Counted from the first letter of the stretch, positions 5,033 to 12,802 are shown. The stretch is DNA of 64,000 nucleotides from Verrucomicrobiaceae bacterium (GCA_016713245.1 JADJPM010000001.1:1679076-1743075); one strand, 5' to 3'. Made by a program: numbers and translations. Notes: generated by a model from the letters alone, not told the origin.

Positions 5033-6647
5033 ATGCACTCAACTGCCGTCTCCATTTTCAACGACGTCATCGGTCCCGTGATGCGTGGTCCGTCCAGCTC
5101 GCACTGCGCCGCCGCGCTGCGCATCGGCCGGCTGGCGCGGGATTTGATGGAGGGCGAAATCAGTGAGGTGCTCGTCGAGTTCGACCGCGCAGGCTCGCTG
5201 CCGACCACCCACGAGAGCCAAGGCAGCGACATGGGCCTCTTTGGCGGCCTCCTCGGCTGGGACGCCGATGACGAGCGTCTGCCAAACTCCGCGCAAGCTC
5301 TCGCCGATGCTGGCATCAAGCTCCGCATCGAAACCGTCGACGTCGGCGATCCGCATCCGAACACCTACCGCCTCACACTGAAGAACACGCGTGAAACGCA
5401 CACCCTCATCGCCATCTCGACCGGTGGCGGCATGATCGAAGTCATCGAGATCGACGGCGTGCCGCTGCACATGGACGGCGGGTATCACGAGACGTTGATT
5501 TGGGAAAGTGGCTGCGACTTTAGTCGCATTCAGGAATGATTCGGCTAAAGCCGAAACCACTTTCTCAGAAGACAAAGTCATCATCCACGAACTCGCTGAC
5601 AAACAGCTCACCCAAGTCAAAGCCGCCACTTTTGTCCCCTCCGTCCTTTTGGTCCCTTTAGGCCCTCTTTCGGTCAAAAAGCTTTCTCCCGTGCTTCCCG
5701 TCCCTTCCCGCAAAAACCTCCAGGTGCCCTTCACGAGCTGCGCCGACATGCTTGCCCACGACGGAGCCCAAAACACGCCTCTTTGGCAGCTCGCCATCGA
5801 GTATGAGCGTGCTCGCGGAAACTTCACCGAGGAGGAAGTCATCGCGAAGATGACCGATATCGTCCGCATCCTGCGCAAATCCATCGCCAGCGGCATCGCG
5901 GGCACGAGTTACGAAGATCGCGTGCTGCATCATCAAAGCGGGCGCTTTGCCGAAATGATGAAAGCGGGCCGTTTGCTCGATGGCGGAGCCTTGAACCGCA
6001 TCATCCTCTATGTCACCTCCATCATGGAAGTGAAGAGCAGCATGGGCGTCATCGTGGCCGCGCCGACAGCAGGGGCTTGTGCGGCGCTGCCAGGCGCGGT
6101 GATCGCGATGTCGGAGGAAATGGGCAAGGACGAGACCGAAATGGCCAAAGCGATGCTCGCTGCCGGATTGATCGGTGTTTTCATTGCCACGCGATGGACC
6201 TTTGCGGCGGAAGTGGGCGGTTGTCAGGCCGAAGGCGGTTCCGCAGCCTGCATGGCCGCCGCCGCGCTCGTCACACTCGCGGACGGCACACGGGATCAGG
6301 CCATCGCGGCGGCTTCGATGGCGTTTCAGAGCATGCTCGGCCTCATTTGCGATCCCATCGCGAATCGCGTCGAAGCGCCGTGCCTCGGCAAAAACGTCAT
6401 GGCAGCCTCGAACGCCCTTTCCTGCGCAAACATGGCCCTCGCCGGCTACGATCCGCTCATCCCGCTCGATGAAGTCATCGACGCCGCCAAAGCCGTCTCC
6501 GAACGCATGCCTCGCGAGCATCGCTGCACCTCCCTCGGCGGCCTCGCCGTCACCCCGACCTCCCTCGAAATCGAAAAACGCCAGCCGCGATCACGGCGTC
6601 AAAGTCATGCCCCGGCAGCAGACGCGGCTGCACATCGATCGCGATGA
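5033..6647 (+). CDS. sdaA: L-serine dehydratase (Fe-S type), beta and alpha domains fused; one frameshift near 5500, 3' end uncertain
   Basis: SIFNDVIGPVMRGPSSSHC (beta) and GVIVAAPTAGAC, AAEVGGCQAE, LGLICDPIANRVEAPC (alpha) motifs. Confidence 0.85.
5505..5563. repeat. REP-like inverted doublet inside the serine dehydratase interdomain linker
   Basis: AAAGTGGC-TGCGAC-TTTA-GTCGCA ... TTCGGC-TAAA-GCCGAA-ACCACTTT; same family as 12741-12802. Confidence 0.75.
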
Positions 6648-7305
6648 TCGACTCGTCCGGCGCACGGATGAAATTGCGATCATGCGTGTCCGCAAGCTGC
6701 ACGCCATCGCCGCGTTCCCACAGCATCAACGTGTCGTTGTAGGCAAAGCCAAGCGCATGCAGCAAGCCGTGGATTTCCTCCTCCGTCGGAATGAATCGCA
6801 CCGGATGCGGCTGGATGAAGGGCTGCGAGGTCACAATGCTCAGACCGCCCGGCCGCTTCCACATGCCCTCAAAGCGAACGTCATCACCGAAGATTCGATT
6901 GCTCAGCCGCAGCCTGCGCAAGTATCCCGCCGGCGTGTAGTAACCGAATTGCCCGAAACCGGCCTCGCCGGGGAAAGTGGACTTCCAAAACCTCGTGCCA
7001 CCACCAGCATGAAACACCTCATGCTCTCGCCCGGATTTTCCGAACGCACGGCTTGGGAGATCGCGCTCCTTCAGAGCACAGCCGCTGCTTTTTGCAAAGC
7101 TCGCGAGGGCTTCAAACTGGGCGGCGACTCGGGCTTCCCACTCGGCAACCGGATCCCGTGGCTGACCCACATTTGCCATTCGGCGGCTTGGTGGAGAAGG
7201 TCGATGTCCCGCTGCGAGAGCGGCTTGTTCTGCTTCTGCAAGGTCCATATCCGTTGCGCCTCCTCGAGGGGGATCGGTTGGGGGACGTCTGAGTTCATGG
7301 CGCAT
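6550..7305 (-). CDS. Standalone Ser/Thr/Tyr kinase of the polyvalent-protein type (Kinase-PolyVal-like); start uncertain
   Basis: SGREHEV, YLRRLRLSNRIFGDDVRFEG, IVTSQPFI, LADTHDRNFI and IIAID motifs typical of that kinase family. Confidence 0.65.
   Translation of the reverse strand: MRHELRRPPTDPPRGGATDMDLAEAEQAALAAGHRPSPPSRRMANVGQPRDPVAEWEARVAAQFEALASFAKSSGCALKERDLPSRAFGKSGREHEVFHAGGGTRFWKSTFPGEAGFGQFGYYTPAGYLRRLRLSNRIFGDDVRFEGMWKRPGGLSIVTSQPFIQPHPVRFIPTEEEIHGLLHALGFAYNDTLMLWERGDGVQLADTHDRNFIRAPDESIIAIDVQPRLLPGHDFDAVIAAGVFRFRGRSG
7071..7298 (-). CDS. Possible 75-aa protein overlapping the kinase 5' region in another frame
   Basis: MNSDVPQPIPLEEAQRIWTLQKQ..., helical-looking; ATG lies 5 nt after a TTGCCG-N17-CAAAAT promoter-like motif. 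Confidence 0.35.
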   Translation of the reverse strand: MNSDVPQPIPLEEAQRIWTLQKQNKPLSQRDIDLLHQAAEWQMWVSHGIRLPSGKPESPPSLKPSRALQKAAAVL

Positions 7306-7332
7306 TTTGCCCGACAGATTCCCGCCCGGCAA
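7304..7332 (-). promoter_or_regulatory. Candidate sigma70 promoter
   Basis: TTGCCG-17 nt-CAAAAT on the minus strand. Confidence 0.35.
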
Positions 7333-7516
7333 CCCCTTGTTTCATTCTGATTTCACTCACCCGACTGCTCATGCTCTTCGTCATCCGCATGATCAGCCGA
7401 GCCCGAATCCGCGAGGTTAATCGAACCACGAGAAGAAATCTGTTCAAAAACATCTTGCGTTTCGGCAACGACTTGTGAGCATCTATTCCCCTATGCATTT
7501 AGGGGCCGCCATCTTA

Positions 7517-7544
7517 CACAGCGCACAGCGCACAGCGCACAGCG
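7517..7544. repeat. Heptamer tandem repeat (CACAGCG)x4
   Basis: Four exact copies. Confidence 0.9.
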
Positions 7545-7590
7545 CGTGTAGCGGCTCGCGGACCCTCAAAGTGGGCGTTTTTCAAGGTTT

Positions 7591-7863
7591 TCAGGAGCTT
7601 CCCTCACGAAAAGGGACGATTCCCTCGCTCTCAGGGAGCTTTACCTCAGCGGGAGGGATTCGCGTCATGAGACGCGGGATTCATCCCCAACTCTCAGGGA
7701 ACGTTCCCTCGGCCCGAGGGAACGCTCCCTCACCGTTAGGGATTGTCACCTCAACCCGAGGGATTCCTCCCCACCTCCAGCAGGAACTTCCCTCGGCGTC
7801 AGGGATTCTTACCTTTTCTCCAGGGATGCATCCCTCAGCGCGGAAAGAGGCTCCCTTTTCCAA
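7591..7863. repeat. Array of 13 degenerate 21-bp units with palindromic core AGGGA-N4-TCCCT(C)
   Basis: Strict 21-bp period with no indels; e.g. agggacgattccctcgctctc, agggaacgttccctcggcccg, agggaacgctccctcaccgtt, agggatgcatccctcagcgcg. Confidence 0.9.
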
Positions 7864-11636: not shown

Positions 11637-11701
11637 TTGTCTTTTCAAACACACAGCTCACCAAACATCTCCAACTTCATATCCATCCACCCTCCAAATA
11701 T

Positions 11702-12310
11702 ATGCAAAAGTCACGCCTTACTCAGAACCGAATCAGCCAACCCTCTTCTGTTGTTAGCCACGGGAGTCAGTTGAGTCCAGCAACAGCTCAGTTGGACGCA
11801 TCGAGCCTTAAACCTTCTTCTTTTCACGCGTTTCTTTGGCCGAATCTGACAGGTATCGCATTTTCCATTATCGGTGGGATAGCGATGGGTAGTCGAGAAG
11901 AAGAAGTTGGGGCAGTATTTTTTGTTCTGGCAGGGATCGCAATTATTTGGACCGCGGTTTACGGCGCTATCGTTCTTCACAGAGCATGGCGAACTCTTCA
12001 AGGGAGCACCGCACGGACAACCCCAGGAAAGGCGGTGGGATATCTTTTCATTCCCTTCTTTGGCTTGTATTGGGTATTTCAGGCCTACCACGGATGGGCC
12101 AAGGACTACAACCAGCATCTGGTCAGCCAGGGGCTAGATCAGCCAGATAAACGTGCAAGCGAAGGCCTTTTCTTGGCAACTTGCATCCTGATGGTCTGCG
12201 GTATCATTCCGTTGCTTGGTCTTGTGGCTCAATTCGTGGGAATCATCTTCGGGTTGATTACATTCAGCCAGCTAGTTCGAGGAACAAATTACCTCGTTCT
12301 CGGGAAATAG
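11702..12310 (+). CDS. Membrane protein, DUF4328-like
   Basis: Several TM helices and TTPGKAVGYLFIPFFGLYWVF motif. Confidence 0.65.
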   Translation: MQKSRLTQNRISQPSSVVSHGSQLSPATAQLDASSLKPSSFHAFLWPNLTGIAFSIIGGIAMGSREEEVGAVFFVLAGIAIIWTAVYGAIVLHRAWRTLQGSTARTTPGKAVGYLFIPFFGLYWVFQAYHGWAKDYNQHLVSQGLDQPDKRASEGLFLATCILMVCGIIPLLGLVAQFVGIIFGLITFSQLVRGTNYLVLGK

Positions 12311-12329
12311 TAATCTCCAGCACTTTCCC

Positions 12330-12727
12330 ATGCCCTTCGACCCCACCAAGCCGCGAACAACTCGCCGAACTCCTCGGCGGAAATGCGCAGCCAGCTCACG
12401 GGGCTGAAGGCGCTCATTGATGCCATCCAGACGATCACCTCCGCACAGGTGGATGGCGTGAACACAGTGTCGCCCGGCAATCCGGCCAACGTGAGCCTGA
12501 GCGTGATCGGCAACACCCTGCACTTCACCTTTGACCTCCCGCAAGGTGAAGTGGGACCGACGGGCGAGGTCTCCTCCAACGACCTCAGCAACGCCATCTC
12601 CGGCACCAGTAACAACTGCAACAACGTGAGCACCCTCGGCCAAGGAGCCGATGGCAGCTACAACCAAAGTCAGATGCAGGACCTCATCAACAAGGTGGAT
12701 GAGCTGATCAATGCGCTGCGGCGGTAA
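12330..12727 (+). CDS. Hypothetical fibre/collagen-like small protein (MPFDPTKP... start; frameshift near 12352)
   Basis: Restored N-terminus MPFDPTKPANNSPNSSAEMRSQLTGL; FTFDLPQGEVGPTGE Gly-X-Y stretch; C-terminal helix DLINKVDELINALRR. Confidence 0.65.
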
Positions 12728-12740
12728 GTGTGGCTTGGGA

Positions 12741-12802
12741 AATGTGGTTTCGGCTTTAGCCGAATCGTCTTGAGGCCGTTCGGCTAAAGCCGAAGCCACT
12801 TT
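12741..12802. repeat. REP-like inverted doublet
   Basis: GTGGTTTCGGCTTTAGCCGAA-14 nt-TTCGGCTAAAGCCGAAGCCAC, 20/21 complementary. Confidence 0.8.

Follow-up and report, generated by a model that had tools for sequence, protein, structure and literature searches.

An array-FN3-fibre cassette with cargo in its spacer: a probable integrase-free accessory insert in a Verrucomicrobiaceae genome

Gene content and limits of the insert

The DNA analysed here (the window) is a stretch of 64,000 nucleotides (nt) at C1:1679076-1743075 of a 7.1-Mb, 93.5%-complete Verrucomicrobiaceae genome assembled into 5 contigs; coordinates given without a contig or locus name are positions in this window, and loci and genomes used for comparison carry L and G numbers. 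Between sdaA (Pfam SDH_alpha) and a large cytochrome-c gene, the open reading frame (ORF) listing, the sequence and its composition reveal a run of same-strand genes at 7935-12727, as had been described in an earlier reading made from the sequence alone (the sequence-only reading). The run begins with a gene for an FN3-domain protein and ends with a gene for a fibre-like protein. These two genes and a 21-bp repeat array 5' of the FN3 gene form a cassette that recurs at other loci, and the window copy holds additional genes, referred to here as cargo, between its FN3 and fibre genes. Our analyses indicate that ~7355-12950 is probably an accessory insert, namely, one copy of the array-FN3-fibre cassette with cargo acquired in its spacer without an integrase. 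The features of the region are as follows.

6550..7332, minus strand: Kinase-PolyVal family kinase (Pfam PF18762, E = 3.1e-10); left flank, outside the insert
7355..7590, plus strand: left end of the insert; homology to the empty site of G023 ends at ~7352; includes (CACAGCG)x4
7475..7933, plus strand: putative open frame through the microsatellite and the array, with its stop 1 nt before the FN3 ATG (ORF list)
7591..7863, plus strand: 21-bp phased array, 13 units of the AGGGA-N4-TCCCT type; lag-21 identity, 0.47
7935..8738, plus strand: FN3-domain protein, first conserved cassette gene (homologues, structural model)
8761..8907, plus strand: Cys-rich (Zn-ribbon-like) microprotein of 48 amino acids (aa), 98% identical in L103; optional cassette member
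8949..9260, plus strand: 103-aa coiled-coil ORF, fast-evolving; 62% aa identity to L103
9281..9457, plus strand: 58-aa ORF, 98% identical in L103; no family match
9532..10459, plus strand: lipobox/bitopic membrane protein, gene 1 of the three-gene unit; start at TTG 9602, or at ATG 9532 if the C5/C6 run is erroneous
10513..11636, plus strand: ORC/Cdc6-BrxC/D-like AAA+ ATPase, gene 2 of the unit; Walker A GEFGSGKSH, Walker B LLDEVE
11702..12310, plus strand: DUF4328-like polytopic (four-transmembrane) membrane protein, gene 3 of the unit (Pfam DUF4328 [PF14219], E = 2.4e-4)
12330..12727, plus strand: fibre-like protein, second conserved cassette gene; conserved termini MPFDPTKPANNSP... and ...DELINALRR
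12728..12958, plus strand: right end of the insert; identity to the DNA 3' of the G018 fibre gene, 85.6%
12741-12802, inside the right end: repetitive extragenic palindromic (REP) doublet, a hairpin doublet that recurs at intergenic sites

The limits of the insert were evident from comparison with a genome of the same genus, G023, whose cytochrome is 93% identical. G023 has an empty site at which the kinase (81% nucleotide identity to the window copy) lies directly beside the cytochrome-c gene, ~75 bp from its start codon, and homology to the window stops at ~7352 and restarts just before 12970. Because the G023 homology breaks at these points, we place the island proper at ~7355-12950 (5.6 kb) and regard the kinase as its flank. 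The sequence-only reading, which had drawn the island at 6550-12802 with the divergent kinase on its left, was right that there is an insert and that a kinase is present (E = 3e-10), but the limits differ and the kinase is not a member of the island.

G018, the closest relative (cytochrome 96% identical), has other content at this place: a low-GC ORF of 1401 aa fills the kinase-cytochrome interval beside an N-terminal remnant of the kinase, and to its left are a Sel1 gene and another cassette copy (helix-turn-helix [HTH] gene, array, FN3 gene and short fibre gene). The 1401-aa ORF (L019:12485-16690) sits in 4.4 kb of DNA with a GC content of 0.51-0.54 and has no Pfam match at E <= 0.01. Most other members of the genus have a different gene order, with the cytochrome gene upstream of sdaA. 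Given that the site is empty in G023 and filled with other DNA in G018 and that the order differs across the genus, the kinase-cytochrome junction is a variable spot. The synteny comparison that the sequence-only reading had proposed as a check thus revealed a block that is not invariant; missing from one close relative at the same site and replaced in another, it behaves in this respect as a classical genomic island does.

The middle of the run is AT-rich, as had been noticed, with a GC of 0.48-0.55 across ~9.4-12.3 kb vs 0.61 for the window. When log-odds scores for codon usage were derived from the long ORFs of this genome, the FN3 gene scored 0.16 and the fibre gene 0.31 vs <0.1 for every cargo gene, in agreement with the proposal that the first and last genes have host-like codon usage. 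The C-rich leaders without a Shine-Dalgarno (SD) motif that had also been pointed out are real but not distinctive: an SD-like motif was found in only ~10% of the long ORFs of this genome, so such leaders are its norm. No integrase or recombinase domain was detected in any ORF of 6550-12950 or near related loci, no transfer RNA gene lies within 25 kb (an Rfam RNA scan was likewise empty) and no att-like site was found; the island is integrase-less, as described. A scan for sigma-70 promoters and terminators gave nothing above shuffles. The REP doublet reported on the right proved to be real, its core CGGCTWWAGCCG occurring in 20 copies in the genome vs 3 expected; core copies lie at 5542, 12751 and 12781 and are also found in relatives.

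The array-FN3-fibre cassette and its copies elsewhere

The 21-bp array, the FN3 gene and the fibre-like gene constitute a cassette that is restricted to Verrucomicrobia, accessory and multi-copy. The FN3 family occurs in 15 of 31 genomes of the genus, at 1 to 11 copies each, and in only 4 of 301 sampled genomes of the phylum. FN3 and fibre genes are neighbours at four other loci of this genome (adjacent copies include C4:238939/239845, C4:2779747/2779562 and C5:746787/746092) and at 12 of the 19 evaluable loci from genus relatives. The gap between the two genes is usually 18-600 bp in relatives; it is 18-21 bp in L013, L014 and L023, where the FN3 protein is 84% identical. Among 80 loci fetched from other genomes, an FN3 subfamily with a long N-terminus dominates and only ~10 loci have an adjoining fibre gene; no other conserved neighbour is common to the fetched loci. 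We found no description of the array-FN3-fibre cassette in the literature.

The FN3 protein has 729 homologues (50-96% identity), all unnamed and without a Pfam domain. An AlphaFold2 (AF2) model (mean pLDDT, 78.8) places helices at residues 40-105 and an FN3 sandwich at 180-267, in this model, the W-D-rich N-terminus is disordered and is followed by a long helical hairpin, with the FN3 domain at the C-terminal end. The window protein fits the invariants of the family alignment, which are the W-D N-terminus, a Met30-x-R-Q-x-Y-Y-P helix and the C-terminal FN3 domain. When the model was searched with Foldseek, only the generic FN3 domain was matched, and the N-terminal helical hairpin had no informative match. 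The family comprises two types: one with a long N-terminus (MKPLxWD...LEPGDPGY), which is usually fibre-less, and one with a short W-D N-terminus, which is almost always followed by a fibre gene (comparison set, L118-L131). Genes of the long-N-terminus type (L113-L117, L122 and L123) are often followed by low-GC genes for secreted proteins.

The fibre family numbers at least 1564 proteins, many of them with collagen repeats (PF01391). Its members share an N-terminus of the form M(P)FDPxxP...R.Q and a C-terminus ending in ...ELINALRR, and their middle has Gly-X-Y runs scattered among one to four beta-rich repeats. The window fibre, which lies 3.6 kb downstream of the FN3 gene and is therefore not adjacent to it, has the MPFDP..P N-terminus and the ELINALRR C-terminus once a 1-nt deletion is allowed for. 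Its orthologue in L018 is intact (132 aa) and highly similar.

The array is as constant a part of the cassette as its sequence is variable. When FN3 loci with enough upstream DNA were counted, arrays of 21-bp (or 42-bp) units were found just 5' of the FN3 gene at ~67 of 69 loci from other genomes and at 20 of 20 genus loci. The lag-21 identity of the window array (0.47) compares with a maximum of 0.38 across 1000 shuffles, and GGGA and TCCC recur in phase in 10 and 9 of its 13 units, respectively. Unit sequences are locus-specific and differ completely from one locus to the next despite conservation of the FN3 protein, and some arrays are palindromic and others not. In the window array, left half-sites are kept and right half-sites vary without compensation, which favours protein-binding DNA sites over RNA hairpins. 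Given the locus-specific units and the uncompensated right half-sites, neither a conserved peptide nor an RNA hairpin made from the array is favoured. In the C4 copy, L019, L058, L118-L121 and L124, the array is immediately preceded by an HTH gene; these genes are of the XRE type in several cassette subtypes, and in some of these subtypes the upstream XRE-type protein probably reads the array.

Further intergenic 21-bp arrays of this genome have no FN3 gene (C4:1204345-1204682, C4:1252674-1253018, C1:2294416-2294648 and C4:268404-268756). Two of them precede genes for ~250-aa helical proteins, one of which is followed by a PIN-like gene, and one precedes a mini-ORF with only the fibre C-terminal motif (...LDELINALRR). 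Since these arrays stand without an FN3 gene, the array class appears to be wider than the FN3 family.

Ahead of the window array lies the heptanucleotide microsatellite (CACAGCG)x4 at 7517-7545 (Tandem Repeats Finder: period 7, 4.1 copies, 100% match), which is a possible phase-variation element. Of 68 related loci, 8 have a 7-nt unit in three or more perfect copies upstream of the array. These tracts, found at L026, L030, L035, L080 and L116 among others, have 4-16 perfect copies of differing units, are located 400-680 nt 5' of the FN3 start and are far more frequent than expected by chance. The open frame that runs through microsatellite and array recurs in the same layout in L016 and L103. 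At least one open frame spans the array on the plus strand at 68 of 68 loci and on the minus strand at 60 of 68, which the C-rich strand composition could explain.

Other elements were seen near cassette copies. IS3-type transposase genes abut two of them (C4:2129006-2130191 and C4:2746786-2748032), of which one has a frameshifted FN3 gene and no fibre gene and the other a fibre gene and no FN3 gene; some cassettes have apparently been disrupted by insertion sequences. The flanking kinase has 11 paralogues in this genome. The closest (C4:278156-278881, 74% identical) has three features within 10 kb, namely a further 21-bp array, 3.5 kb of low-GC DNA and a remnant of a fibre C-terminus (nearby coordinates, C4:273826-273903 and C4:268404-268756), and a kinase homologue is also close to the cassette in L083. 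Kinase and cassette may thus be loosely associated. We considered and rejected C4:238-279 kb as one large element joining FN3 gene, fibre gene and kinase paralogue, as the intervening genes are ordinary host genes.

The cargo and traces of recombination

Aligned with L013, the window is homologous to 2 nt past the FN3 stop, and homology resumes 2 nt before the fibre ATG. These endpoints place all 3.6 kb of cargo within what is normally an 18-nt spacer. The cargo consists of three small ORFs and a three-gene unit of ~50% GC; it has a GC of 0.51 vs 0.61 and no paralogues in the genome. Among the small ORFs, the Zn-ribbon ORF has a homologue in L027, a distant cassette, with the same N-terminus (MLS.LRHL) and the same position between FN3 and fibre genes. 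The coiled-coil ORF has no family match in Pfam, PHROG, PADLOC or NCBIfam. It is locally hypervariable, with several in-frame indels relative to L103, whereas the neighbouring genes are 90-98% identical.

In the first product of the three-gene unit, a lipobox (LVAGC) is accompanied by a transmembrane helix and a coiled coil, and the C-terminal domain is conserved. The second, the ATPase, has an intact homologue (P0122) that is 96% identical. Its scores for Pfam BrxC_BrxD (PF10923; 19.5 bits vs a cut-off of 22.2) and NCBIfam BrxD (NF033438; 11.7 bits vs a cut-off of 350) fall short, and Foldseek searches with its AF2 model (pTM, 0.77) gave weak matches to ORC2, DnaA domain III and BrxC (E about 3e-3). 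BrxD has been described as a stand-alone ORC/Cdc6-type AAA+ ATPase (PMC12839542). A sequence search of the PDB returned nothing for the ATPase, the lipoprotein or the kinase. For the third product, the label "DUF4328-like" given by the sequence-only reading is apt in its suffix, but the score (21.2 bits vs a cut-off of 27.2) is below the Pfam gathering threshold.

The same three genes occur on their own in L104-L106, with ordinary neighbours and without an FN3 or fibre gene. There the ATPase is 76% identical, and the GC of the unit is 0.50 vs 0.59 in the flanks. In L104, the first and third genes are 37-45% and 70% identical, respectively, to those of the window. L110 keeps the triad architecture at 36% identity, with a bitopic membrane protein, an ATPase and a small polytopic membrane protein (DUF805). 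On its composition and these sequence comparisons, the cargo is foreign and modular, and the three-gene unit is separately mobile.

Different copies of the frame hold different cargo. A metagenome contig, L103, is 88.7% identical to window 7517-12412 and has the window's cargo with all genes intact, which indicates that this cargo state has been stable and under purifying selection. L018 is an orthologous cassette (FN3 protein ~70% identical, fibre intact) with a gene for a 211-aa protein, a gene for an S-adenosylmethionine-dependent (SAM) methyltransferase and a fatty-acid desaturase gene between FN3 and fibre genes; these occupy 2.9 kb with a GC of 0.52 vs 0.65 for the FN3 gene. In L036, a small secreted coiled-coil ORF lies in this position. 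The proposal of a two-gene frame with captured cargo is thus borne out, in that the pair is linked elsewhere and encloses different content in L018, L027 and L036.

Several observations point to exchange between copies by recombination. The G018 cassette is orthologous to the C4 copy of this genome, yet it lies at another chromosomal site. Homology between the two extends from the HTH gene to inside the fibre stop codon (C4:240043-240079 vs L019:10518-10554), and because it ends there the C4 fibre gene has lost its stop: it reads TGC for TGA, and the ORF runs on into flanking DNA. The G018 fibre gene is chimeric and matches the window fibre gene at its 3' end and over the next 230 bp, and the middle of the L103 fibre differs from that of the window. 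The relocated G018/C4 cassette, the chimeric G018 fibre and the altered L103 fibre middle are the basis on which we infer such exchange. When the cargo junctions of L018, L027, L036, L103 and the window were compared, no conserved sequence emerged, and a search of the cargo boundaries for direct repeats, target duplications and att-like motifs was likewise negative. With no integrase, tRNA or att-like site, recombination via the conserved cassette genes is the likely route.

Competing explanations and significance

Whether this copy is intact bears on how the locus is read. Relative to L103, the window has five 1-nt indels in 2.9 kb: three in the ATPase gene (11250, 11353 and 11490), one in the fibre gene (~12350) and one in the lipoprotein leader (9539), where a homopolymer reads C5 vs C6 in L103. 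The 414-aa ATPase ORF as listed is an artefact of its three indels; the intact homologue has 374 aa, and the gene ends at 11636. The fibre deletion lies near 12348-12354, at approximately codon 9, as judged against C4, L103 and L013. If these lesions were real, the copy would be decaying, a set of pseudogenes heading for loss. The clustering of three indels within 250 bp of the ATPase gene is consistent with decay. The flanking conserved genes carry such lesions too, however, at ~0.4 per kb vs two or three relatives, so the frameshifts are probably assembly errors in this 5-contig, 93.5%-complete genome, which is the simplest reading of the sequence, the other being unusually many pseudogenes. 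The flanking single-base indels are at sdaA 5534 (inside an in-gene REP copy), cytochrome c 15783 and position 17513 of the gene at 17126-17966. Several of the indels also fall in short homopolymer runs, and, indels aside, the genes are 90-98% aa-identical to L103, which indicates purifying selection. The rpoB gene is intact, and errors are thus not present throughout. We therefore consider decay unlikely.

The sequence-only reading had suggested a defence or degenerate phage-related module, and neither part of this suggestion was upheld. The defence explanation regards the kinase-cytochrome junction as a defence island, within which the three-gene unit would be a sensor-ATPase plus membrane-effector anti-phage system and the FN3-fibre cassette an incidental neighbour; it is compatible with a structural account of the cassette. 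The faint BrxC/BrxD and SspC-like similarity of the ATPase, its ORC/BrxC-like fold, the movement of the unit as a block of atypical GC, the different large low-GC ORF at the same spot in G018 and the recurrence of toxin-antitoxin genes near FN3 loci would fit. We nevertheless judge this explanation improbable, since no island protein has a significant match in PADLOC v2, NCBIfam or PHROGs; the best PADLOC scores are for SspC (E = 0.003, 13.5 bits) and BrxD (E = 0.022), without partner genes. The BREX partners PglZ and PglX are not present, no BREX genes lie near the window, L104 or L110, the neighbours of the unit in L104 and L110 are ordinary genes, and the unit was absent from the plasmid and phage collections searched. 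Were the locus a degenerate prophage or tailocin, its FN3 and fibre genes would be remnants of a tail gene set and its cargo would be residual moron genes. Phage tails often contain FN3 domains and collagen-like fibres, the fibre has weak PHROG tail matches (E = 0.006-0.009) and the flanking kinase is from a family typical of polyvalent phage and conjugative-element proteins, all of which would fit. This possibility is largely refuted and very unlikely, given that searches of 2.9 million IMG/VR contigs and 50,697 phage records (INPHARED) turned up no relative of the FN3 or the fibre family, that no capsid, terminase, portal or integrase gene was found near any of >100 loci and that the pair is multi-copy, each copy with its own 21-bp array. 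In the plasmid collection, searches with the FN3 protein, the fibre and the ATPase likewise found no relatives. Finally, the cargo might be ancestral and the tight FN3-fibre pairs deletion derivatives. The Zn-ribbon ORF at the same position in two distant cassettes (window and L027) would fit this scenario, but the three-gene unit has foreign GC and occurs without any cassette, the L018 cargo is unrelated and most pairs are tight in several subfamilies, making it very unlikely.

We accordingly favour an accessory insert that consists of one array-FN3-fibre cassette with cargo acquired in its spacer. Cargo would have entered or been swapped without a site-specific recombinase, by homologous or homology-facilitated recombination with arms provided by the two conserved cassette genes and by further copies of the cassette. 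The same-strand, SD-less cargo genes would be expressed from the array-containing leader of the cassette; the array would act as an iteron-like row of protein-binding sites on one face of the DNA, bound in some cassette subtypes by the XRE-type HTH protein encoded just upstream, and the heptanucleotide microsatellite ahead of it could add phase variation. As for function, we infer that the FN3 protein and the (often collagen-like) fibre form a structural pair and that the three-gene unit is a membrane-associated ATPase module, which might have a defence role. A more far-reaching proposal, that the cassette is an integrase-free gene-capture and display platform whose spacer genes are co-transcribed from the microsatellite and array leader, is speculative and in our view doubtful. 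Several observations weigh against parts of this account. Cargo is rare, with two independent multi-gene cases among ~30 pairs, and "capture platform" may be too strong a term for a spacer that tolerates an occasional insertion. Neither the FN3 protein nor the fibre protein has a signal peptide, which is awkward for a surface fibre. Many arrays are non-palindromic at the consensus level, and the window array has no neighbouring HTH gene. The ATPase gene, the fibre gene and the lipoprotein leader are interrupted in the assembly, such that this copy would be decaying if the indels were real.

The locus resembles several known systems in part. Like integrons, it combines a conserved platform with same-strand, variable, compositionally foreign genes that probably depend on an upstream promoter and differ by genome. 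Unlike integrons, it has no IntI, attI, attC or conserved junction sequence, its cargo is rare and a second conserved gene closes the frame. Capsule and O-antigen loci and vgrG/Rhs-linked effector islands likewise enclose unrelated gene sets between conserved genes, lack a dedicated recombinase and have chimeric flank genes indicative of homologous recombination, but the cassette flanks are mobile and multi-copy rather than single-copy core genes. The array recalls the iterons of R6K, pPS10 and RK2 and sopC of F in having ten to twenty-odd contiguous same-phase repeats of approximately two helical turns with an element-specific sequence; the cassette arrays, in contrast, are chromosomal, several per genome, always 5' of one gene family and without a Rep/ParB-type gene. 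The ATPase shares with BREX BrxD/BrxC a stand-alone ~370-aa P-loop architecture, a faint PF10923 match and weak ORC2/BrxC structural matches, whereas its scores are below the cut-offs, PglZ, PglX and BrxHI are absent and its partners are two membrane proteins. Among cassette copies, the window, its close relative L103 and the orthologue L018 differ from the others in having multi-gene cargo.

Because the same frame is visible empty, with one cargo and with another, the locus shows how a large uncharacterised Verrucomicrobia cassette family behaves: it comprises hundreds of FN3 genes and >1500 fibre genes, relocates between sister species and recombines internally. The analysis also delineates a new three-gene membrane/AAA+ ATPase unit, which is independently mobile and is a candidate defence or envelope module. 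If the cassette were indeed a capture platform, a single iteron-like or phase-variable switch would turn on the fibre pair together with an acquired accessory module, such as the membrane ATPase unit or lipid-modifying enzymes, and homologous recombination between copies would reassort their cargo and fibre segments. Should the array leader control expression, it would represent a new type of cis-regulatory architecture in a phylum that has seen almost no genetic work.

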